Source: Nanobdellota archaeon
GTDB taxonomy: Archaea > Nanobdellota > Nanobdellia > Nanobdellales > Nanobdellaceae
Direction of reading: 5' to 3'
Assembly (NCBI GenBank): GCA_042850255.1
Contig: AP031373.1
Coordinates: 210,001-242,000 of the forward strand
Length of the DNA stretch: 32,000 bases
Both the position numbers and the translations under genes were made by a program. Under the pieces are notes generated by a model. That model ran no database searches and was not told the DNA's origin. It worked only from the letters and a program-made list of their open reading frames with translations. This document shows, piece after piece, positions 2,199 through 23,263 of the stretch; positions within the stretch are counted from its first letter, which is position 1, and each line of letters opens with the position of its first letter.

Positions 2199-2206
2199 AA
2201 TAATTG

Positions 2207-3535
2207 ATGGAAATTGAAGTAATACCTGTAGGTGGATATTCATATATAGGAAAAAATATGACTGCAATAAGAATTGATGATGAAGTAATATTAATAGATA
2301 TGGGATTAAATATGGATAAAATATCGCAATTTGGAGAAAGAGAAAATTTTATAGAAAAATCTATGAAAGAATTATATGAATTAGATATTATACCTGATGA
2401 TAATATATTAGAAAAATATAGAGATAAAGTAAAAGCAATAATAATAACACATGGACATTTAGATCATTTAGGAGCATTAAATTTTATTGCACCAAAATAT
2501 AATGCACCAATATATGCATCCCCATATACAATTGAATTAATAAAAAAACAAGAAAAAGAGTATGGAATAGTATTACCAAATGATTTAAAGAAAGTATCCC
2601 CAAATTCTTCTATAAGAATTTCAGATAAAATAAATATAAATTTTATTAGCATGACTCATTCAATTCCTCAAGCATTAATGGTTGATATACAAACAAATAA
2701 AGGACATATTGTATTTTCAGGAGATTTTAAATTCGATAATTTTCCTTTAATTGGTAAAAAACCAAATTTTAATAAATTAAGGGAAATTGGAAAAGAAGGA
2801 GTATTATTATTAATATCTGAAACTACTAGAGCTGATGAAGAATCAAAATCTCAATCTGAAATAATTGAAAAATATATGTTATATGATGTATTAAATTCAA
2901 TAGATAGTAAGGGAATAATTATTACAACATTTGCATCCCATATTGCAAGATTAAAAAGTATAATAGATTTAGGAAAAGAAATTAATAGAAAAGTAGTATT
3001 CATTGGAAGAAGTATGGGAAAATATTTAAGAGCTGCAGAAAATATTGGATTATATAATTTTTCTGAAAATGCAGAAATATATGATGATGCAAGAGATTTT
3101 AAGAAAGTATTTGAAAGATTAAATAATAGTAAGGAAGAATATTTAATAGTTGCTACTGGACATCAAGGAGAACCAGGATCTGTTTTAGATAGATTATCAA
3201 AGAATGAATATAATTTTAATTTAGAAGATACAACAATTGTATTTGCAAATAATGTGATACCACACCCAATAAATGAAGCAAATAGAAAAATATTGGAAGA
3301 AAGATTAAGAAGAAAAAAGGCAAATATAATAAAAGATATACATGTATCTGGACATGCAAAAGCACAAGACCATTTAATGTTAATAAAAATGCTAAATCCT
3401 GAATATATAATACCAAATCATGGAGATATTAATAAAAAGGCTTCATATTATAATATTGTATCTGAAGAAGGATATACATTGGGAGAAGATATATTTTTCT
3501 TAGAGGATTACCAGAGTAAAACATTTAATATATAA
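2207..3535 (+). CDS. rnj: archaeal RNase J (metallo-beta-lactamase / beta-CASP ribonuclease)
   Basis: It has the HxHxDH motif (ITHGHLDHLGAL), SGDFKFD, a late HVSGHA and PNHGD, and is about 440 aa. The ORF track starts at TTG 2204; ATG 2207 is more likely. Confidence 0.8.
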   Translation: MEIEVIPVGGYSYIGKNMTAIRIDDEVILIDMGLNMDKISQFGERENFIEKSMKELYELDIIPDDNILEKYRDKVKAIIITHGHLDHLGALNFIAPKYNAPIYASPYTIELIKKQEKEYGIVLPNDLKKVSPNSSIRISDKININFISMTHSIPQALMVDIQTNKGHIVFSGDFKFDNFPLIGKKPNFNKLREIGKEGVLLLISETTRADEESKSQSEIIEKYMLYDVLNSIDSKGIIITTFASHIARLKSIIDLGKEINRKVVFIGRSMGKYLRAAENIGLYNFSENAEIYDDARDFKKVFERLNNSKEEYLIVATGHQGEPGSVLDRLSKNEYNFNLEDTTIVFANNVIPHPINEANRKILEERLRRKKANIIKDIHVSGHAKAQDHLMLIKMLNPEYIIPNHGDINKKASYYNIVSEEGYTLGEDIFFLEDYQSKTFNI

Positions 3536-6702: not shown

Positions 6703-8903
6703 TGAACACCTTCTGGTATGCCTTTTCTTTTTCTTATAGAATCTATTATTTGTTGCTGTAAATCTTTTGGTACTCTTTCAAATACCTGATCTTCTAAGAA
6801 CCAAACACCCTTTCCTGATGTAGCAGATCTTAATTCATCTGTAAATCCAAACATATTTGCTACAGGAACTTTTGCCTTAATTACTCCTCTTTCTTCTTCT
6901 ACATTCATTTCTAATATCTGTCCTCTTCTAGATTGTAATATTGATGTTACATCTCCAACATTTTCTGGTGGAACATCTATTCTAATAATTTGTAATGGTT
7001 CATACAATGTAGGTTGTTCTAATATTGCTTCTTTTATCGCATCCTTTGCAGCAGGAATAATTTGAGCAGGACCTCTGTGAATTGCATCTTCATGCAATAC
7101 CGCATCTATCAATTTTACTTTCATCATAATTCCAGGTTCCCATGCTAATGGACCTTGATCCATTACTTCTTTAAATCCTTCTACTATATATTCAATTACT
7201 TCTGGTAAATGAACAATACCTCTTGTCATATCAATTAATACATTTCCATTATGTACCATTATAATTCTTCTAGCTTCTTCTTTATCAAATCCTATTTCTG
7301 CAAATACTTTCCATAAATCTTCTTTTTTAATTCTTCCTTCTGGTATTTTTCCTTCCCTAATATATTCTCTTAATTTTTCATATATCTCATTTGGTAATGG
7401 CTCTATTTGGAAGTATAATTTATTGTGTTTATTTGGAGATTTACCTTCATGTACCTGTGTTGTATTACTTACAGATTCTCTATAAACTACAATTGGTTCA
7501 CCAACTTTAATTGGTATTCCAAAATCATTTTGTACTCTATATTCTATAATTTGTAAATGTAAATCACCTAAACCCGATACTAATATTTCTCCAGTATCTT
7601 TTCTTTGCTCTACTTTAATAGTTGGATCTTCCCTTTTTATTAATTCTAATGTTTCAATTAATTTTGGTAAATCATTTGGATTTTTTGGTTCAAATGATTT
7701 AGTAACTACAGGTTCTAACCAATGTTTTAATTCTTCAAACATTTCAACAGATTTTGGGTCTTGTACTTTTCCAACAATTGTTTCTCCAGGATATAAACCT
7801 CTAATACCTACTAATGCAATAATATTTCCAGCTTTTACAGAATCTACATTTAATCTTTGTATTCCTTTCCATATAGCAACCTGTTGTATTTTAATTTGTC
7901 TACCAGCTTGTAACATATATACATCATCTCCCTTATTTAATGTTCCTGAAAATATCCTTGCAGTTGCAATTTCTTGTTTAGATACTTTATCAATTATAAC
8001 ATTTGTTACATTAATAACTACTGGACCATTTGGATCTAAATTTATCATTGCTTTTCCTACATCTGAATTTATATCTCCTTTCCATATATGAGGAATTCTA
8101 TATTTTTGAGCTTCAACTGGGGAAGGCAAATGTCTAATTACCATATCTAATACAACTTTTGCTACAGGTGCTTTCTTTCTCATTTCTTCCTTTAATTTTT
8201 CCTTATCTTCTCCATATTTTGTATATATATCTATTACATCTTTGAAAGAAACATTATTCTTTTTCATATATGGAACTGATAATGCCCAATGGAATTTTGC
8301 AGAACCAAATGCTACAGATCCATCATTTACATTTACTAACCATTTTCCTTTAAATTCTGGTGGACAATATTTGTCAATTAATCTATTAACTTCAATAACA
8401 ATTTTTCCTATTCTTTCCATAATTTGTTGTGGTGTTAACTTTAATTCTGTTATTGCTCTATCAGATTTATTAATAAATAATACAGGTTTTACATATTCTT
8501 TTAAAGCAGTTCTTAATACAGATTCTGTCTGTGGCATTACACCATCTACAAAATCTACTACAACAACTGCACCATCAATTGCTCTAGCAGCTCTAGTAAC
8601 TTGTCCAGAAAATTCTACGTGTCCAGGAGTATCTATTAAATTAATTAAATAATCTTGATTTTCATATTCATGCACCATAGAAACTGCAGCACCATATACA
8701 GTCATTTCTCTTTCTCTTTCAGTTTCATGCCACCATGTAAACATAGCCTCTCCTGCTAATTCTTCTGCAAGCATTCCTGCACCTGCTAATAATGAGTCTG
8801 TTAATGTAGTCTTTCCATGGTGTATATGTGCTATTATTCCTATATTCCTTATATTATTTGGATTATTCATAACCTGTAATACCCTTTCAGTTAAAGTCGC
8901 CAT
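6699..8903 (-). CDS. fusA: translation elongation factor 2 (aEF-2)
   Basis: GTPase motifs are AHIHHGKTTL, DTPGHVEF and NKSDR. The diphthamide-site motif is DAIHRGPAQIIP. It is 734 aa. Confidence 0.97.
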   Translation of the reverse strand: MATLTERVLQVMNNPNNIRNIGIIAHIHHGKTTLTDSLLAGAGMLAEELAGEAMFTWWHETEREREMTVYGAAVSMVHEYENQDYLINLIDTPGHVEFSGQVTRAARAIDGAVVVVDFVDGVMPQTESVLRTALKEYVKPVLFINKSDRAITELKLTPQQIMERIGKIVIEVNRLIDKYCPPEFKGKWLVNVNDGSVAFGSAKFHWALSVPYMKKNNVSFKDVIDIYTKYGEDKEKLKEEMRKKAPVAKVVLDMVIRHLPSPVEAQKYRIPHIWKGDINSDVGKAMINLDPNGPVVINVTNVIIDKVSKQEIATARIFSGTLNKGDDVYMLQAGRQIKIQQVAIWKGIQRLNVDSVKAGNIIALVGIRGLYPGETIVGKVQDPKSVEMFEELKHWLEPVVTKSFEPKNPNDLPKLIETLELIKREDPTIKVEQRKDTGEILVSGLGDLHLQIIEYRVQNDFGIPIKVGEPIVVYRESVSNTTQVHEGKSPNKHNKLYFQIEPLPNEIYEKLREYIREGKIPEGRIKKEDLWKVFAEIGFDKEEARRIIMVHNGNVLIDMTRGIVHLPEVIEYIVEGFKEVMDQGPLAWEPGIMMKVKLIDAVLHEDAIHRGPAQIIPAAKDAIKEAILEQPTLYEPLQIIRIDVPPENVGDVTSILQSRRGQILEMNVEEERGVIKAKVPVANMFGFTDELRSATSGKGVWFLEDQVFERVPKDLQQQIIDSIRKRKGIPEGVH

Positions 8904-8916
8904 TTACTATTCTTAT

Positions 8917-11703
8917 TTAGAATAATTTAAAAATATCTATTAAGATTCTTATATACATGTTACTTAATGTTGTTATCATTCTAGATAATAAAGGAGGAGA
9001 ATAAATATTTTTAGATTCTAATAAATTATTGTTTTTTGTATAATTTACTACCAGATTATATTTATAACTTATTATATTGTTACCATTTGAACTTACATTA
9101 ATAAATAACTGTGATTCTCCAATATTAATAGGAATAACAGATAACTTTAATATAATAGATTGGTTACCTCCTATATTTGGAATAAATATAGATATATTAT
9201 TATTTATTTTTATTCCATAATAATACAAAAGAACATTGCTTCCATTATATCCAATATTTATTTTCAAATTTGATATATTATTTCCACTATTATTTAAATA
9301 AATTATTAAATTACTTGGTATCCCTAAATTAAAGGATAAATTTTTTGTTACAATATACATACTTCCATTATAATATTTATATGTAGATAATGATAAATTG
9401 TAAGAATTATTTACTTTACTATCATTTATATATTCAATAACTGGGATTAAAATGTTATAATTCAAATTATACTGAGAACATAAATTATAATAATTACAAG
9501 CTTCTATTGTTATGTTTGTATAATTTGAATATGGAATATTTATATTTATATTATTTTGTCCATAAAATATATAAACAAGATTATTTTCATTTATTTTAAT
9601 AAATTCTATATTATTTTTTGGACCTATATAAATATTAAGATCTTCATAATTCGGGGTAATATTTTCAAATATATATTTTAATTCTGGATAAGTTATTGTA
9701 TAGTTTTTATATACTATTTCTTTATATATATTAGGTATTTGTATATTTAATATTTCAGATTGACAATTATATAATCCAGCTAAAGATAAAGCGCATATTG
9801 TTATATTTGTATAATTATAATAAGGTAAGTTTATTATAGTTGAATATAAAAGTGTATTAGGACTATAATAATTTACTAATTCTCCATTTTCATATACAGT
9901 AATATTTAGAAGATTTAGAAGTGATGAAATACTAATATTTGCTATTATTGAAGAATTTGATATTGTTAAAGAATTAATTAATATAGTTGGAGGTAATAAT
10001 ATTCCGCCACCACTAACTACTTTAGTAGATATAGCTATATTTTGTGTAATATTTACTGTTATATTTTGAGAATCTATACATGTTCCATTATAACAAGTTT
10101 GTCCATAAATATAATAATAACCTGGAGAGGATATTATACAAGATAAATTAAAATCATTGAAAGTTCCTATAGATGAATAACAATAAGGAGTATTATTTAA
10201 AAATATTGTATAATTTTGTCCACATCCTTCAATATAAACATTTACCGAATTATTAGATTCATTAGCATTTATAGATACATTTTGTTCTATATTATAAGTA
10301 AATATTGTAGATGCTGTAAGTGCATTGATTGAAATATTATAAGAACCTGGAGGAACTGTTGGAGATGAATAAATAATTATTGGAATTGAACATGAAGTAC
10401 TATTGGTAATACAATAATTACCTTGAGGGAATGAACATGTAAATCCTGAAGGAGTATTACATGAAAATGTTACTGTTGTAGATGCACCTCCTGGATTATT
10501 TATATTTGCTGTTACTGCAATTAATACTGATCCTCCTGGACAAGAAGTATAAAAAGACTGATTTAAAGTTACAGATGTAACTGAAACTGCCGGTTGTATA
10601 GAAAATGAAGGCATAACACCATTTGGAGGATAAGATGCAATAGCCAAATATGATACTTGCGCAATAATTCCTTCATTATTATTAGAAAAATACCATGTTA
10701 TATATCCATTAGTAATTTGTGGATTAGAGTATGTTCCATTTATATAATTAATTCCATCCGTAAAATATGCATAAGAATTTGATATAGTAAACATCCATAC
10801 TTCTGGTGGTAAAGGAGAAGCCCCCTCTGGAACAGTTTCTGATAAGTATGCTGAAGTTTGATTTTCAACTTCTAAATTATAAGTACAATAGTTAGGATCA
10901 CATAATAATCCCACCATTTGTGGTGCTGGACTACCTGCGCTATCTCCAGAAGCAATACCTATACCAAACATATAATTAGTATAACTAGTTACATAAGGCT
11001 CGTATGTTACCAACTCGATCATAGAAAAGGGAAAACTTATCGTATAATCATATATTACATTATATTGCTGATATCTTGTAGTTACCGAAAAGGTTAAACC
11101 GTTATCTTGCGTAACAGACGCCCCATTAGGAATTATTATATATGGGGATAGTATTGTTCCATTAAAATTATCATAAAAATTAAATACATAATTTCCATTA
11201 TCATATATTCCATAATTTAGACATTGACTCATATTTGTATATCCTTCCTCATAACAGTACCAGTATGCACTTACTCCTGTATAAGGATAATATTGTTGAT
11301 AATAATTTTCACTTTGTGGTCCAACATACATATATATTGTTAAATTAGAATTAGCAGGTATTCCTGAAGGTATATTCACCCACCAAACATCACATAATGT
11401 ACCACTTATATTTTCTTGACCTTCAAACCATGAATATAATAAAGAATCTGTTGAATTAACAAAATATACATTAGATCCGTTTGAATTAATTAAGTTAAAT
11501 AATGTTTGATTATTTACATATGCAAAATTATTACCTAAATTTACATTTCCGTTACATATTGCTATATCTTGTTGGAATGGTGCTGGAGTAGGAATTGGTT
11601 GAGAATTTACTATGGTTATTTGATATGAACCTTGAGAAAATATTAAGTTATTTGTTAAAATGATTATTAAAGCTATAAAAAATATCCATAAAAATTTTCT
11701 CAT
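8917..11703 (-). CDS. large secreted surface glycoprotein candidate with DUF2341-like and LamG/concanavalin-like N-terminal region
   Basis: It has a signal peptide (MRKFLWIFFIALIIILTNNLIFSQG). A DUF2341-like signature follows (LLYSWFEGQEN...CDVWWVNIPSGIPANSNLTIYMYVGPQ), then YDNFNGTIL (LamG-like start). There are dozens of N-x-S/T sequons, many Cys and almost no Lys. Confidence 0.7.
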   Translation of the reverse strand: MRKFLWIFFIALIIILTNNLIFSQGSYQITIVNSQPIPTPAPFQQDIAICNGNVNLGNNFAYVNNQTLFNLINSNGSNVYFVNSTDSLLYSWFEGQENISGTLCDVWWVNIPSGIPANSNLTIYMYVGPQSENYYQQYYPYTGVSAYWYCYEEGYTNMSQCLNYGIYDNGNYVFNFYDNFNGTILSPYIIIPNGASVTQDNGLTFSVTTRYQQYNVIYDYTISFPFSMIELVTYEPYVTSYTNYMFGIGIASGDSAGSPAPQMVGLLCDPNYCTYNLEVENQTSAYLSETVPEGASPLPPEVWMFTISNSYAYFTDGINYINGTYSNPQITNGYITWYFSNNNEGIIAQVSYLAIASYPPNGVMPSFSIQPAVSVTSVTLNQSFYTSCPGGSVLIAVTANINNPGGASTTVTFSCNTPSGFTCSFPQGNYCITNSTSCSIPIIIYSSPTVPPGSYNISINALTASTIFTYNIEQNVSINANESNNSVNVYIEGCGQNYTIFLNNTPYCYSSIGTFNDFNLSCIISSPGYYYIYGQTCYNGTCIDSQNITVNITQNIAISTKVVSGGGILLPPTILINSLTISNSSIIANISISSLLNLLNITVYENGELVNYYSPNTLLYSTIINLPYYNYTNITICALSLAGLYNCQSEILNIQIPNIYKEIVYKNYTITYPELKYIFENITPNYEDLNIYIGPKNNIEFIKINENNLVYIFYGQNNININIPYSNYTNITIEACNYYNLCSQYNLNYNILIPVIEYINDSKVNNSYNLSLSTYKYYNGSMYIVTKNLSFNLGIPSNLIIYLNNSGNNISNLKINIGYNGSNVLLYYYGIKINNNISIFIPNIGGNQSIILKLSVIPINIGESQLFINVSSNGNNIISYKYNLVVNYTKNNNLLESKNIYSPPLLSRMITTLSNMYIRILIDIFKLF

Positions 11704-11736
11704 AAATTATCCTTTGTACTTTCAAAAATATAAAAA

Positions 11737-11916
11737 TTATTCTTTTGTTATTTCCAATTCAAAGGAAGGTGCCTTAAATCCTACTATTCTATGGTGTCCG
11801 TCACAAAATGGTTTCTTTTCTGAATGTCCACATCTACACAAATGATATACTGGTTTTCCATCGACTAAAACTTCATATGGTCCATTTTCATATCCTTTTA
11901 TAACAACTTTTGCCAT
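11737..11916 (-). CDS. CDGSH-type iron-sulfur domain protein (59 aa, absent from ORF track)
   Basis: My own translation gives MAKVVIKGYENGPYEVLVDGKPVYHLCRCGHSEKKPFCDGHHRIVGFKAPSFELEITKE. It contains the C-x-C-x2-S-x3-P-x-C-D-G-x-H signature (CRCGHSEKKPFCDGHH). The start is the complement of 11914-11916 and the TAA stop the complement of 11737-11739. Confidence 0.8.
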   Translation of the reverse strand: MAKVVIKGYENGPYEVLVDGKPVYHLCRCGHSEKKPFCDGHHRIVGFKAPSFELEITKE

Positions 11917-12527: not shown

Positions 12528-13189
12528 ACTTAGCAGTATTATTTTCAGGAGGAAAAGATTCTAATTATTCATTATATATTTCTTCAAAATATCGTAATAT
12601 ATCTGTATTATTAAATATTGTTCCTGAAAATAATGAAAGTTATTTATATCATTATATAAATTATAATATAACAAAATTGCAATCAGAAGCTTTAAATATT
12701 CCTTTAGAAACATTTTATGTAAGTAAAGATGAAGAAAAAGTACTAGAAGATGCATTAAAATATTTAAAGGAAAAATATAATATTGAAGGAATTGTAACAG
12801 GAGCAATAAGATCTGTATATCAAAGTACAAGATTTCAAAGAGTATGTAAAAAATTAAATTTATGGTGTTTTAATCCTTTATGGTTAAGAAATGAAAAAGA
12901 ATATTTACTTGAATTATTAAAAAATAATTTTCAATTTATTATAACGGGTTGGTATACATATCCTTTAGATATAGATATTTTAGGAAAAATTGTAGATGAA
13001 AATATTATAAATAAACTATTAGAGTATGGGGAAAAATATAAAATAAATATTGCTGGAGAAGGAGGCGAATATGAAACATTAGTTTTATATCAACCTTTAT
13101 TTAAAAAAAGAATAGTAATTGATGAATATGAAATAAATATTCAAAAGAATTATGCAGAATTTATAATTAAAAAAGCTCATTTACAATGA
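12524..13189 (+). CDS. dph6: diphthine--ammonia ligase (Dph6 / MJ0570-family PP-loop ATP pyrophosphatase)
   Basis: It has the PP-loop VLFSGGKDS at the N-terminus and the GEGGEYETLVL motif near the C-terminus. It is about 220 aa. Confidence 0.8.
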   Translation: MNLAVLFSGGKDSNYSLYISSKYRNISVLLNIVPENNESYLYHYINYNITKLQSEALNIPLETFYVSKDEEKVLEDALKYLKEKYNIEGIVTGAIRSVYQSTRFQRVCKKLNLWCFNPLWLRNEKEYLLELLKNNFQFIITGWYTYPLDIDILGKIVDENIINKLLEYGEKYKINIAGEGGEYETLVLYQPLFKKRIVIDEYEINIQKNYAEFIIKKAHLQ

Positions 13190-13713
13190 TAGGAATAATA
13201 TATACTAATAAAGAAGAATTATCAAAATATGAATTTTTATATCCTGTAGAAAATATATTAAAAGAATTAAATATAGATTACAAGGTTTTTTCATATAAAG
13301 AAAAAATAAAGGAAAATTTAGATAAAATAATAATAACAGGAACTGCAATAATGGATTTCGATTATTTAAATTATATAGATAATTTTAAATTTATAATAGA
13401 AAACAATATCAAAACTTTAGCAATATGTTCAGGTTCCCAAATTTTAACAAAATTATTAGGATATAATTTAATTGATAAAGAAATAATAGGAAAATATTTT
13501 GTAAAAGTTGTTAAAGAAAATAAATTAATAAACAAAGATTTTGAAGCTTATTTTATTATAACAAAAATTCCTAAAATAGATAATAATTTTAATATATATG
13601 GATATATAAATGATATACCAGCATTATTTAATTATAAAAATATATATTTTTCATTGTTTCATCCAGAAGTTTTAAATAAGGATATAATAATAAATTTTAT
13701 AGAATATATATAG
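13186..13713 (+). CDS. class I glutamine amidotransferase-like protein (small stand-alone GATase subunit)
   Basis: The nucleophile elbow is LAICSGSQIL and the His-Glu is in LFHPEV near the C-terminus. It is 175 aa and overlaps dph6 by ATGA. Confidence 0.65.
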   Translation: MIGIIYTNKEELSKYEFLYPVENILKELNIDYKVFSYKEKIKENLDKIIITGTAIMDFDYLNYIDNFKFIIENNIKTLAICSGSQILTKLLGYNLIDKEIIGKYFVKVVKENKLINKDFEAYFIITKIPKIDNNFNIYGYINDIPALFNYKNIYFSLFHPEVLNKDIIINFIEYI

Positions 13714-13767
13714 CCCCTATCAAGGGTGACCTTAGATTAATGAAAAGGTTGAGTTGATAGGGGTACA
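13714..13767 (+). ncRNA. K-loop-capped hairpin followed by ACA (H/ACA-like sRNA candidate)
   Basis: A perfect 10-bp lower stem pairs CCCCTATCAA (13714-13723) with TTGATAGGGG (13754-13763). The internal loop is GGGTG / TGAG. A 5-bp upper stem pairs ACCTT (13729-13733) with AAGGT (13745-13749). The 11-nt loop AGATTAATGAA can form tandem sheared G-A pairs (G13735-A13743, A13736-G13742). ACA lies at 13765-13767. The region is locally GC-enriched in an AT-rich genome. Confidence 0.35.
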
Positions 13768-13820
13768 TAATGAGGAAACCGTCCCAGTCTGAAAAATGAT
13801 GACAGAGAGACGATCTGAAA
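13768..13820 (+). ncRNA. C/D box sRNA (2'-O-methylation guide)
   Basis: The layout is: C box AUGAGGA (13770-13776, one deviation from RUGAUGA), 12-nt guide AACCGUCCCAGU (13777-13788), D-prime CUGA (13789-13792), 3-nt spacer, C-prime AUGAUGA (13796-13802), 12-nt guide CAGAGAGACGAU (13803-13814), D box CUGA (13815-13818). The two 12-nt spacers are the archaeal hallmark. Confidence 0.8.
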
Positions 13821-13866: not shown

Positions 13867-15804
13867 TTATTCTTCTACCTTTTCTTTATCTTTTTCCTTT
13901 CCTCCTCTTCTTCTAGATTCTACCAATATTGCTGCAATTATTATTATTGCCAATGCTACTAATATCCAGAATATTATTGCTTCGGATGGCAATGATATAG
14001 ATGTAACTGGAACTCCTGTTGATGTATATGTTTCATTTAATGAATACAATAATTCTCCATTTTGTGCATTTATTATATTTACATATACTGTTACATTACT
14101 ATTTTCTGCAGTTACATTTAATGGAATTTGTTCTGTATACATTCCTCCAATTTGTACTTGTTCTTCTTCTGGATATACCTCTCCACCTACTGCATATGCT
14201 TGTATTATTAAATTATATATTTGTGTTGAATTTGAAGATAATACTAAGTATATTGTTTTATTCTTTCCAATTGTTAATTGTTCATATCCAATTAATGATG
14301 CTGTAATTGGTTTATATACTGGTTGTGTTCCATTTACATATATATTGTATGTATATTGTTGTGTTATTCCATTATAATTGAATACAAATGTTATTGGATA
14401 ATATCCTGCTTCTAATCCTTCTGGTACATATATTACTACTGGCAATTGTGTAGGTGTGCTTGGTGATAATGTTATTGTTGATAATTGTTGAAATAGATTA
14501 AATTGTTGAGATTCTACTATTGGTGTTACTTCTATACTCATTGGTAAATTACTTTCTAATTCTAAGTATAATTCTATATATTCTCCAGGTTTTACATTAA
14601 ATGTATTTTGATATACATTTAATACATCTACTGGTTGGATATTTTGTTGATTTACTGCTACCGTATAATTATATTCATTAATTTCTACTCCATTTTCATA
14701 TAGATATAATACTATTGTATAATATCCTGGTGCCAATCCTACAGTATTTAATGGTAATGTTAATTCTACTTGTTGTTGTGGACTTACTAATTGAGAAGTT
14801 TCTAAATTATATATTAAATCTCCATATTGATCATATACTAATAATTGTGCTGTTGCATTTGCTGTTTGGTATCCGGGATTTTCCAATAATATATTTATAT
14901 TATATGTTGATGATTGTAATTTACTTAATAAATTGAAGTTTGGTGATATTGATATTACTTGTAATAATTCTCCATTTTCATTATTTGATACATAGAAAGA
15001 TTGTGTTGCATATTGTGTTAATTCCTCTCCATTGTTTAATACAACATTTAATTGTTCTGATACATACATTTGTCCTTGTACATTTTGGAAATAAGAACTT
15101 GGTATACCTACTGTTAATAAATTCTCTCCTGGTTGTAAATTAACATTTTCTTGTGTTTGATATATAATATTTCCTTGAGAATTGTATAATGTTAATGTTA
15201 ATGTTGATGATTGTATATTTGTTTCTGTATTTTGTAAATATACTATTGATTGTACATTTAATCCATATTCTTCTGCTTGTTGTTGTGATACAACTTCTGG
15301 TAATTGTACTATGGATAATGATAAATTATATGGCAAATATGTTATATTATACATTTCTTCTCCAGATACTATTTCTTCCTGTCCATTTGGGTATATTAAT
15401 GATATATTTGCTTGTACTGTAATATTATTTAATGTACTTACAAAACATACTCCATTACCACAACTCTCTACACTTTCATTTGCCAAAGCTAATAATTCTA
15501 CAGGATTTACTGATACTGTGTATATATCATTTCCTGTGCATACTTGTATTGGTTCATAATATTGGTATATTATACTTCCATTTGGCCCATATATATTAAA
15601 ATACAAATAGGACTCAAATGGTGTTTGATTTACTCCTAGTAATTTTACTATGAATGTTAGATTATTGCTAACGTAATTCGCTAATAATGTTGGAGTTTGC
15701 GGTTCTATTATTATTTCTTGTGACTTTACTGCTAATGCTGCTATTCCTAATGCAAAAAATAATGGTATTATTTTCTTAAATGTTGCTACTATTTTGTTAT
15801 CCAT
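13867..15804 (-). CDS. cell-surface (S-layer-like) protein with repeated beta-sandwich modules and a C-terminal TM anchor
   Basis: It has an N-terminal signal/TM (IIPLFFALGIAALAV). A motif of the type L-Y-N-x-x-G-x-I-I-Y recurs (FNIYGPNGSIIYQY, LTLYNSQGNIIYQT, LLVYDQYGDLIYNL, NIINAQNGELLYSL). The C-terminus has the TM IIFWILVALAIIIIAAILV followed by the basic tail RRRGGKEKDKEKVEE. Composition is Q/E/V/Y-rich and K-poor. Confidence 0.7.
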   Translation of the reverse strand: MDNKIVATFKKIIPLFFALGIAALAVKSQEIIIEPQTPTLLANYVSNNLTFIVKLLGVNQTPFESYLYFNIYGPNGSIIYQYYEPIQVCTGNDIYTVSVNPVELLALANESVESCGNGVCFVSTLNNITVQANISLIYPNGQEEIVSGEEMYNITYLPYNLSLSIVQLPEVVSQQQAEEYGLNVQSIVYLQNTETNIQSSTLTLTLYNSQGNIIYQTQENVNLQPGENLLTVGIPSSYFQNVQGQMYVSEQLNVVLNNGEELTQYATQSFYVSNNENGELLQVISISPNFNLLSKLQSSTYNINILLENPGYQTANATAQLLVYDQYGDLIYNLETSQLVSPQQQVELTLPLNTVGLAPGYYTIVLYLYENGVEINEYNYTVAVNQQNIQPVDVLNVYQNTFNVKPGEYIELYLELESNLPMSIEVTPIVESQQFNLFQQLSTITLSPSTPTQLPVVIYVPEGLEAGYYPITFVFNYNGITQQYTYNIYVNGTQPVYKPITASLIGYEQLTIGKNKTIYLVLSSNSTQIYNLIIQAYAVGGEVYPEEEQVQIGGMYTEQIPLNVTAENSNVTVYVNIINAQNGELLYSLNETYTSTGVPVTSISLPSEAIIFWILVALAIIIIAAILVESRRRGGKEKDKEKVEE

Positions 15805-21902: not shown

Positions 21903-22523
21903 ATGATAATAGTACCTGGAGATTTTGTTAAAACAAAAGACGAAAATGTATATGAAAATAATGGAGAATATCATTCAAAATATATAGGATTATTAGAGGA
22001 AAGTAAAAATAAAATAACAAAATTATTTGGATATTATATACCAAAACTAAACGATATAGTAATAGGAAAAGTAATAGATGTATTACCTATAGGATGGTTA
22101 ATAGATATAAATTCTCCATATTTAGGATCCTTATTATTAAAAGATATGAATATGGAAAATGTAGATCCAAATGATTTATATACATATGAAGATTATATTT
22201 TATGCCAAATAATAAAAATAACAAAAAATAAAATAATAAATTTGGGAATAAAGAAAAAAGAAAAACTAAATGATGGATTAATAATAGATATAGATCCTGT
22301 AAAAGTACCTAGAATAATAGGAAAAAATTCTTCTATGTTAAATATGTTAAAAGAATTATTGAAAGTTAAAATAATTGTTGGACAAAATGGGAGGATATAT
22401 ATAAATGGAGATGAGGTAAATGTATTAAGAACAGTAAATGCTATAAAATTTATTGAGGAAAATTCTTATAAAAAAGGTTTGACTGAAAAGGTTAAAGAGA
22501 TGATTGAGAAAAATATAATATGA
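21903..22523 (+). CDS. rrp4: exosome RNA-binding cap subunit Rrp4 (S1 + KH)
   Basis: The S1-like segment is IVIGKVIDVLPIGWLIDINSPYLGSLLL. The KH segment is VPRIIGKNSSMLNMLKELLKVKIIVGQNGRIYING. It lies directly upstream of, and overlapping, rrp41. Confidence 0.8.
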   Translation: MIIVPGDFVKTKDENVYENNGEYHSKYIGLLEESKNKITKLFGYYIPKLNDIVIGKVIDVLPIGWLIDINSPYLGSLLLKDMNMENVDPNDLYTYEDYILCQIIKITKNKIINLGIKKKEKLNDGLIIDIDPVKVPRIIGKNSSMLNMLKELLKVKIIVGQNGRIYINGDEVNVLRTVNAIKFIEENSYKKGLTEKVKEMIEKNII

Positions 22524-23263
22524 GATTTGACGGAAGAGAATATAATCAAATAAGAAAAATAGATATAAAGTTAAATGTAATAGAAAATGCAAAAGGATCT
22601 GCAATATTTTCATTTGGAGATACGGTTGCATTAGCTGCAGTATATGGACCAAAACCTTCAAAGATGTCTATAGATTATGATAAGGCATTTTTAAGAGTTA
22701 GATATAATATGCTAACATTTTCTGTTCCAGAAAGGAAAAAACCCGTACCTGGAAGAAGAGAAATAGAATTATCTGAGGTAATAAAAAGAGCGTTAGAACC
22801 TGCATTATTTTTGGAAGAATTACCTGGAAGTATTATTGATATATATGTAGAAATATTAAATGCTGATGCGGGAACAAGAACTGCAAGTATCAATGCTTCA
22901 TCTCTAGCATTAGCATTAGCAGGAATTCCAATGAAAGATTTAGTTACTGCAGTTGCTGTAGGTAAAATTGGACAAAGAATTGTAGTAGATTTAAATAAAA
23001 ATGAAGAAGATTATGACTCAGAAAAGTTAAAAAATGATCCTGAAAAGAAAAAATATATAGAATATTATGGAGAAGGAAGAGCCACAGATATACCTGTCGC
23101 AGTAATACCTTCTGAAAAAAGATTTACCTCTATACAATTAGATGGAGAAATATCTAAGAATGAATTAAGAGAAGCATTGACTCTAGGTTTAGAAAAATGT
23201 ATAGAAATAAGGAATATAATGAAAAAACATTTATTGGAATATTTTTCTATAAATAAATTATAA
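22520..23263 (+). CDS. rrp41: exosome RNase PH-like catalytic subunit Rrp41
   Basis: It has RFDGREYNQIRKI, GSAIFSFGDTVALAAVYGP, ADAGTRTASINASSLALALAGIP and DIPVAV. It is 247 aa. Confidence 0.85.
   Translation: MRFDGREYNQIRKIDIKLNVIENAKGSAIFSFGDTVALAAVYGPKPSKMSIDYDKAFLRVRYNMLTFSVPERKKPVPGRREIELSEVIKRALEPALFLEELPGSIIDIYVEILNADAGTRTASINASSLALALAGIPMKDLVTAVAVGKIGQRIVVDLNKNEEDYDSEKLKNDPEKKKYIEYYGEGRATDIPVAVIPSEKRFTSIQLDGEISKNELREALTLGLEKCIEIRNIMKKHLLEYFSINKL

Follow-up and report, generated by a model that had tools for sequence, protein, structure and literature searches.

The systems described so far that most resemble the element reported here are the archaeal single-hairpin box H/ACA guide RNAs, represented by the Pyrococcus guides (Pab and Pf) and by sR-h45 of Haloferax volcanii, in which a lower stem, a pocket, an upper stem and a kink-loop (K-loop) are followed by ACA. 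The same order of parts is found at 13713-13767 of the window (the whole 32-kb stretch of Nanobdellota archaeon contig AP031373.1 analyzed here), and the ACA of this hairpin is followed after 2 nt by a canonical C/D small RNA (sRNA) at 13770-13818; both modules are on the + strand. The window hairpin also shares with the single-hairpin guides the 14-nt distance from the upper stem to ACA, the 6/5-nt pocket and a bipartite target pairing that leaves a uridine and one further nucleotide unpaired. The Haloferax RNA guides Ψ1940 and Ψ1942, the helix-69 1915/1917 positions, and the window hairpin is likewise predicted to serve a universal helix-69 pseudouridine. It differs from these guides in lacking Rfam H/ACA similarity, in having 9 instead of 10 layers between the K-loop and the pocket, in a pocket that closes on itself by two A-U pairs, and in the position of box C only 2-3 nt past the ACA.

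In the same phylum, Nanoarchaeum equitans possesses a 159-nt double-hairpin H/ACA sRNA (Randau 2012), in which an ACA likewise abuts the next ribonucleoprotein (RNP) module and the G·A pairs of a K-turn are present. This RNA differs from the window unit in its two hairpins, in its 8-9/5-6-nt pockets of unrelated sequence, in its other predicted targets (16S U234 and 23S U614) and in having no C/D linkage. We rejected orthology between the two RNAs, as the N. equitans pockets (AGAGGUGUA/CCCAC and GAGAGUCC/GUGUUA) are unrelated to that of the window and do not fit helix 69. The C/D module is comparable to N. equitans C/D sRNA4 and to the eukaryotic SNORD31/yeast snR67 class of P-loop Gm guides, with which it shares the D' guide core GUCCCAG facing the P-loop sequence CUGGGGCGG, so that the equivalent of G2251 is selected. 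It differs from them in the second guide, which in the window targets position 2509 of the peptidyl-transferase centre, and the 40-nt flank of sRNA4 contains no hairpin upstream. In the dicistronic tRNA-C/D sRNA units of N. equitans, a structured RNA likewise stands directly 5' of a C/D sRNA without its own promoter (PMC3491384), but the upstream partner is a tRNA processed by RNase Z and not an H/ACA hairpin.

Eukaryotic composite C/D-H/ACA small Cajal body-specific RNAs (scaRNAs), such as U85, likewise carry both guide domains on one transcript, as the adjacency of the two modules suggests for the window unit. Mixed C/D and H/ACA polycistronic clusters of plants and trypanosomatids also place both guide types on one transcript. 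U85-type RNAs have the C and D boxes on either side of the H/ACA domain and act on small nuclear RNAs in Cajal bodies; the window unit, in contrast, has tandem modules, a single K-loop H/ACA hairpin and targets in 23S rRNA. According to a review, scaRNAs do not exist in archaea (PMC7991803). No archaeal composite or adjacent H/ACA-C/D RNA turned up in our searches of the literature; both kinds of guide are known, and their arrangement in the window appears to be new for archaea.

The anatomy of the hairpin, its conservation and covariation, its unique target complementarity and the positional equivalence of the target led us to regard 13713-13818 as a real conserved element, which we assign to a new H/ACA guide family, predicted to be aimed at Ψ1917 and placed head to tail with a C/D guide for the P-loop and the peptidyl-transferase centre. 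As judged from these features, a guide function is likely.

Anatomy and conservation of the hairpin

The hairpin follows the open reading frame (ORF) of a class-I glutamine amidotransferase (GATase; 13186-13713), which sits 3' of a diphthine-ammonia ligase gene and whose stop codon TAG ends at 13713. An initial annotation, made from the window alone, had noticed a structured element right after this stop codon, and a perfect 10-bp stem is indeed formed by 13714-13723 and 13754-13763. The folding energy of the hairpin was -21.0 kcal/mol (z = -3.8), and none of 200 shuffled sequences was as stable. RNAalifold recovered the same hairpin unaided and added the pair G13713·U13764. The internal loop had been drawn as GGGTG/TGAG below a 5-bp upper stem. 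A loop is present at this place, but it consists of GGGU and GAG (4/3 nt) and the upper stem has 6 bp, as G13728·U13750 pairs and closes it. Readings of the internal loop as a K-turn or as a bulge-helix-bulge splice motif were rejected by inspection: it offers no place for the G·A pairs, and its size is 4/3 nt.

The 10-bp lower stem of the initial annotation exists in the window, but the pairing of its top two base pairs is not kept in relatives. At alignment columns 9-44, directly below the pocket, two variants have A-U, two have G·U, two have G×A and four have a gap. We therefore read the functional structure as a 9-bp lower stem with a 6/5-nt pocket rather than a stem with a pocket of nine nucleotides; the pocket, which had been considered small, is not really so once the nucleotides of the non-conserved pairs are counted as guide nucleotides. 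As predicted from the sequences, the hairpin is best described by a lower stem of 9 bp, a pocket of 6/5 nt, an upper stem of 6 bp and a K-loop, the ACA coming right after the stem. The 5' strand of the lower stem (13713-13721; the G·U pair plus CCCCUAUC) has its partner at 13756-13764 (GAUAGGGGU). The 5' and 3' strands of the pocket are AAGGGU (13722-13727) and GAGUU (13751-13755), and the upper stem is formed by GACCUU (13728-13733) and AAGGUU (13745-13750). The ACA box (13765-13767) comes directly after U13764, 1 nt past the perfect stem, and lies 14 nt from the pair closing the upper stem in every lineage, in agreement with the spacing recognized earlier.

The K-loop AGAUUAAUGAA (11 nt; 13734-13744) accommodates an A·A pair, the tandem sheared pairs G13735·A13743 and A13736·G13742, and then a 5-nt loop. 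The ability to form tandem sheared G-A pairs had been foreseen from the window, and both pairs proved to be invariant in the 10 sequence variants. The UGA of the K-loop is on the descending strand, the orientation of archaeal H/ACA K-loops (compared with PMC4652768), and the K-loop is presumed to be an L7Ae site. Among the relatives, no change is seen at the GA…UGAA nucleotides; the 3n position is A, C or G, and the loop nucleotides vary.

Relatives were found via the diphthine-ammonia ligase (ten Nanopusillaceae loci) and then via GATase homologues. The hairpin-ACA-C/D unit is in place in all ten loci of the ligase-based set, including those of Candidatus Nanopusillus acidilobi and Candidatus Nanobsidianus stetteri, and further carriers are Nanobdella aerobiophila (L013) and the metagenome contigs L035 and L037. 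The unit thus occupies the syntenic site in 13 related loci, with 10 distinct sequence variants from Nanopusillus, N. stetteri, Nanobdella and the window clade. In an alignment of the 10 hairpin variants, 97% of the cells are paired, compared with 35-60% when the partners are slid. Four stem pairs change on both sides, three of them in the lower stem, and none of 500 shuffles reached the observed covariation score; the closing pair of the upper stem alternates among G·U, A-U and U-A. While the stems vary, AGGGU is invariant in 14 loci, and GAGU, the G·A and A·G pairs of the K-loop, the ACA and the D' guide of the C/D sRNA do not vary either. The structure first interpreted as H/ACA in a single genome is therefore kept, with covariation, in all Nanopusillus, Nanobdella and window-clade relatives examined. 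The hairpin lies within an island of G+C (38-46%, against 24% genome-wide) in this Nanopusillaceae genome, the window as a whole having 23.9%.

Other lineages showed a different arrangement. In the more distant Nanoarchaeota lineage L018, two tandem C/D sRNAs are found at the locus and the hairpin is absent, and in lineage L016/17 neither the hairpin nor the C/D sRNA is present at the GATase locus. The two L018 sRNAs (L018:835-970) come after the GATase gene; the first carries the P-loop D' guide, and the second carries a D guide, AAGAGAGACGAG, that resembles the peptidyl-transferase-centre guide of the window. This distribution implies that guide modules were reshuffled between sRNAs at the locus, which thus records modular reshuffling among lineages: some have the hairpin and others lack it, and D guides have changed places between sRNAs. 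A covariance model of the hairpin found no second copy in 236 kb of the window and related loci. Likewise, a generic screen for other hairpins followed by ANA gave no H/ACA-like candidate in the window, nine Nanopusillus loci and Nanobdella, and the hairpin pattern had no match in viral contigs.

A predicted pseudouridylation target in helix 69

Nanopusillus rRNA was fetched by a metagenome scan with a 21-mer composed of a 16S fluorescence in situ hybridization probe joined to a quantitative PCR primer (Wurch et al. 2016, PMC4935971), and two metagenome contigs, L022 and L030, were found to contain complete 16S and 23S genes. The 17-mer 16S primer gave one chance match among viral contigs, on a GC-rich contig without rRNA. 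Each U of the rRNA was scanned for pairing of the 3' pocket strand with the sequence 5' of the U, and of the 5' pocket strand with the sequence 3' of it, one nucleotide being skipped on the latter side. For the pocket of every lineage, a single site was found in 16S and 23S rRNA, which was the same in both contigs: 23S 5'-GGUAACUC[U]GACCCUCUU-3'. A search of rRNA had been suggested as a check of the H/ACA reading, and the site that it yielded is all Watson-Crick. Its core is 5'-(U)AACUC-U-G-ACCCU-3'. The 3' pocket strand, GAGUU(G/A), pairs with (U)AACUC on the 5' side of the target U, with G13756 as an optional sixth pair, and (R)AGGGU of the 5' strand pairs with ACCCU(C) on the 3' side of the target U-G, giving 10 Watson-Crick pairs and one or two optional ones. 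The unpaired U (L022 23S position 1987) aligns to U1917 of E. coli in the helix-69 loop (alignment with E. coli rrlH).

Such a match is rarely obtained by chance. The strict pattern AACUCUNACCCU occurs once in L022, in none of 200 shuffles and nowhere else in the 34 loci, the window being excluded from this count. When wobble pairs were allowed, 0.057 sites were expected per rRNA set and one was observed, and 9% of permuted pockets found a site. For a chance match at such a site, we estimate a joint probability well below 10^-3. Archaeal rRNA has few pseudouridines, which are clustered in helix 69 and the peptidyl-transferase centre (PMC7991803), and two further papers call Ψ1915 and Ψ1917 "universally conserved positions" and attribute them, in haloarchaea, to Cbf5 and a guide sRNA (PMC2584109; PMC5029457). 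Two other readings of the pocket were rejected. The strict 4+3-nt pocket as the sole guide is too unspecific, with 1.3 sites expected, and its only observed site is the same helix-69 site. The alternative register with a U13727·G13751 pair gave only weak, wobble-rich 16S matches.

The geometry of the hairpin agrees in most respects with the rules established for archaeal H/ACA guides, whose lower stems have 7-9 bp. Productive Pyrococcus folds are of the '10/5/9' or '10/6/9' type, the numbers denoting how long the GA stem, the 3' guide and the lower stem are; the ACA is 14-16 nt from the pair closing the upper stem (14-15 nt in productive Pyrococcus folds), and no wobble or mismatch is allowed at n-1 or n+2 (PMC4652768). 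The window hairpin is 9/5/9, with 14 nt to the ACA in every lineage and Watson-Crick pairs at n-1 and n+2. The 6/5 pocket is that of the commonest Pyrococcus subfamily, and '…/5/9' corresponds to the subfamily-65 class of productive guides (PMC4652768).

In the mechanism that we propose, the first module (13713-13767) would act as a single-hairpin box H/ACA guide, with L7Ae on the K-loop and Cbf5-Nop10 on the lower stem and ACA. GAGUU(G) and (A)AGGGU would pair with 5'-(U)AACUC-3' and 5'-ACCCU-3' of 23S rRNA, so that U1917 and the next G stay unpaired where the upper stem begins, and Cbf5 would isomerize this U to pseudouridine; both the protein binding and the modification are what we infer from the structure of the RNA. 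The two A-U pairs that partly close the pocket would have to open, at a cost of about 4 kcal/mol. The protein list of N. acidilobi (PMC4935971 supplement) includes a pseudouridine synthase (arCOG00987), L7Ae, fibrillarin, a Nop56 homologue and a Zn-ribbon RNA-binding protein (arCOG00906) adjoining eIF2α. We take the Zn-ribbon protein next to eIF2α to be the signature of a Nop10-type protein. For comparison, N. equitans encodes a synthase of COG0130 together with a genuine H/ACA sRNA (PMC3491384). If the proposal is correct, Nanopusillaceae and Nanobdella, ultra-small symbionts that can be cultivated and whose genomes measure about 0.6-0.77 Mb, gain a definite guide, open to testing, for the most conserved of the rRNA pseudouridines.

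Several observations weigh against a guide function. The target rRNA (motif AACUCUGACCCU) was taken from Nanopusillus metagenome contigs and not from the genome of the window. The fifth nucleotide of the 3' guide strand is U in 8 of the 10 distinct variants and A in L035 and L037, which cuts the duplex to 4 bp in these two contigs. In the free RNA, the two A-U pairs close most of the pocket in the minimum-free-energy fold; their opening requires about 3.8 kcal/mol, and the arm duplexes yield about -4.8 and -6.5 kcal/mol, an initiation penalty being included in each. The GA stem, the sole geometric deviation, has 9 layers in the window and most relatives. It is 10 in all but one of the productive P. 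abyssi guides, where changes are reported to be deleterious, and ranges from 8 to 10 in Haloferax (PMC4652768); in L002 and L007 it reaches 10, an inserted U pairing with the extra A carried by the N. acidilobi group. In the N. acidilobi protein list, no entry bearing the name Gar1 was found. Finally, the hairpin matched no Rfam H/ACA family (HgcE/F/G, Pyrobaculum sR20x and others) at the gathering score, nor even at E ≤ 10. On account of this lack of matches we count it as a new family: judged by sequence and structure, it is a member of the H/ACA class, and the RNA family is absent from Rfam.

The closed pocket, the 9-layer K-loop spacing and a protein list with no entry named Gar1 would fit the picture if the hairpin were a non-guide module that binds L7Ae, and perhaps Cbf5, for RNP nucleation, definition of the 5' end or stability of the C/D sRNA, the helix-69 match being fortuitous. 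An analogue would be vertebrate telomerase RNA, whose H/ACA domain works in accumulation and not in guiding, and the tight ACA-box C spacing, conserved at 2-3 nt while the downstream spacers span 10-50 nt, fits such a role as well. On the other hand, a 5+5 match anywhere in rRNA has a chance probability of about 5%, and the one observed consists of Watson-Crick pairs throughout and hits a uridine that belongs to the very few pseudouridylated universally. The nucleotides of the pocket do not vary, whereas neighbouring stem positions covary. In addition, the presence of a C/D sRNA without the hairpin in L018 indicates that the hairpin is dispensable for C/D function; an independent module would account for this arrangement, but so would an accessory role. 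Taken together, we consider a purely protein-binding role unlikely and prefer the helix-69 guide.

Two side observations concern the rRNA of these organisms. The 16S and 23S genes of Nanopusillus do not form an operon: they are on opposite strands, about 6 kb apart, with protein genes between them (L022:1415-4350 and 10290-11783; L030:1412-2906 and 8841-11775). In N. equitans, C/D sRNA22 is predicted to direct 2'-O-methylation of the U1917 equivalent (23S about 2003-2010, CUGUmAACUC; PMC3491384 supplement). Two nanoarchaeal lineages may therefore treat the universal helix-69 uridine differently, one by methylation and the other by pseudouridylation.

The C/D module, its linkage to the hairpin and transcription

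The initial annotation had placed a C box just after the ACA, and the C/D sRNA that begins there is canonical and has rRNA targets. Its layout is AUGAGGA-12 nt-CUGA-AAA-AUGAUGA-12 nt-CUGA, with guides of about 12 nt and a 3-nt D'-C' spacer. Archaeal C/D guides are expected to pair with rRNA over at least 9-10 bp, the target nucleotide facing the fifth nucleotide upstream of box D or D'. Box C (AUGAGGA, 13770-13776) comes after the 2-nt spacer UA and is followed by the D' guide AACCGUCCCAGU (13777-13788), which is complementary to GCUGGGGCGG in the 23S P-loop. The match has 10 bp (L022 23S 2300-2311), and by the fifth-nucleotide rule 2'-O-methylation is predicted at G2304, the equivalent of G2251 in E. 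coli. Box D' (CUGA, 13789-13792), the spacer AAA and box C' (AUGAUGA, 13796-13802) form the internal K-loop and are invariant in relatives. The D guide CAGAGAGACGAU (13803-13814) matches GUCGUCUCUC in the peptidyl-transferase-centre region of 23S rRNA, also by 10 bp (L022 23S 2561-2572, the counterpart of E. coli 2505-2516), and the nucleotide predicted to be methylated is U2565, position 2509 in E. coli; box D (CUGA, 13815-13818) completes the module. Rfam gave sub-threshold C/D matches to sR60, sR12 and SNORD31, and the D' guide resembles that of SNORD31.

An intact D guide is found in the window, L010, L035 and L037; in the N. acidilobi group and L006 the guide has degenerated. In the N. 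acidilobi/N. stetteri group (L001-L009; about 11270-11296 in L009) and in L006, it is A/U-rich (AUUAAAGCUAA, AAUUUUAAAAA). These A/U-rich guides had no convincing rRNA match, an 8-bp run being the best, and the C/D sRNAs of these organisms would effectively be single-guide RNAs. Another difference between clades concerns the terminal K-turn, in which position 5 of box C and position 2 of box D (the 3b·3n pair) co-vary: the window clade has AUGAGGA with CUGA, and the N. acidilobi, Nanobdella, L006 and L018 lineages have AUGAAGA with CAGA.

The second module (13770-13818) would thus act as a double-guide C/D sRNA with L7Ae, Nop5 and fibrillarin, directing 2'-O-methylation of G2251 in the P-loop and, in the clade of the window, also of position 2509 in the peptidyl-transferase centre. 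Together with the hairpin, it would make up one Nanopusillaceae small-RNA transcription unit encoding two rRNA-modification guides head to tail. All three predicted targets belong to the core of the 50S subunit in which tRNA is bound and catalysis takes place, and one small locus may provide a reduced genome with its minimal set of 'essential' modifications.

In every relative, 2-3 nt separate the ACA from box C, and the region after box D ranges from about 10 to 50 nt; this constancy argues for a functional coupling of the two modules. One possibility, to which we give less than even odds, is a mature product that is a single bifunctional RNA of about 105 nt, with a Cbf5-Nop10-L7Ae and a Nop5-fibrillarin-L7Ae particle side by side, installing Ψ1917, Gm2251 and Nm2509 and possibly tethering domains IV and V of 23S rRNA during assembly. 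If so, archaea would have their first composite H/ACA-C/D guide, which would have arisen in a genome-reduced symbiont independently of, and in parallel with, the eukaryotic scaRNAs. Leaving the guide functions intact, the transcript may instead be a dicistronic precursor that is always cut between ACA and box C, giving an H/ACA sRNA of about 55 nt and a C/D sRNA of about 50 nt. The dicistronic tRNA-C/D sRNA precursors of N. equitans are trimmed to separate RNAs (PMC3491384), some mature C/D sRNAs of this organism begin right at box C (supplement, PMC3491384), and the tandem C/D sRNAs of L018 suggest a polycistronic sRNA hot spot. Against such a cut, the 2-3-nt spacer of all lineages leaves almost no tail for either product, and in the N. 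equitans H/ACA sRNA two RNP-forming hairpins separated by ACA alone stay one RNA, which shows that such adjacency is sterically tolerated. In our judgment, the case for an obligatory cut is evenly balanced. In either case, the packing of H/ACA and C/D guides 2-3 nt apart in one archaeal gene raises the question of composite guide RNPs in archaea, so far regarded as a eukaryotic (scaRNA) feature.

The unit had been placed in the 3' untranslated region (UTR) of an mRNA, a placement that now seems doubtful. A putative archaeal promoter, consisting of a purine-rich, BRE-like GAAG (BRE, transcription factor B recognition element) and the TATA-like TTTTAAATAA, is located at 13666-13679 (+), inside the last codons of the GATase ORF. 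The box A of N. equitans is TTTAAA, 26 nt upstream of the start (PMC3491384), and transcription of the window unit is predicted to start around 13697-13702. The motif AAGTTTTAAATAA lies about 45 nt 5' of the hairpin in all lineages, and in all of them but L006 it encodes the residues EVLNK near the GATase C-terminus. In L006 (10664-10728), a Nanopusillaceae metagenome-assembled genome, the GATase gene is absent and the sRNA unit is found 61 nt past the stop codon of the diphthine-ammonia ligase; there, AAGTTTTAAATAA is kept as an intergenic sequence, with AAAAAGTTTTAAATAA about 45 nt 5' of the hairpin. Because L006 has kept both the RNA and the TATA-like motif without the GATase gene, the hairpin-C/D unit is probably not a mere 3' UTR but is transcribed from a promoter of its own within the last part of the GATase ORF.

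The same comparison bears on the view that the hairpin is a 3'-end structure of the GATase mRNA, that is, a terminator or stabilizer, and that the C/D sRNA is excised from the 3' UTR. This view would account for the start of the hairpin directly after the GATase stop codon, and archaeal C/D sRNAs are reportedly frequent at the 3' ends of genes. It is contradicted by L006, which keeps the hairpin, ACA, C/D sRNA and upstream TATA-like motif but has no GATase gene, and an mRNA stabilizer leaves the invariant ACA, the G·A pairs of the K-loop and the rRNA-complementary pocket unexplained. Moreover, termination in archaea occurs at T-tracts and not at hairpins (PMC3491384). We regard an mRNA 3'-end structure as very improbable.

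Other features of the window

No Rfam family was detected at the gathering score in the 32-kb window, which also contains no rRNA, and no tRNA gene was found in the window or in the related loci examined. Genes for RNA processing are present: an RNase J-like β-CASP protein is encoded at 2204-3535, and exosome genes (Rrp4 and Rrp41-like) are encoded at 21903-23263. The sRNA locus is flanked by genes for two very large proteins of 928 and 645 aa (8917-11703 and 13867-15804, both on the - strand). Both proteins have many N-x-S/T motifs and a signal-like segment at the N-terminus, and neither matches a Pfam family; both are likely to be surface proteins. The 645-aa gene runs towards the sRNA and, in the N. 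acidilobi group, ends with a stop codon about 10 nt past box D.

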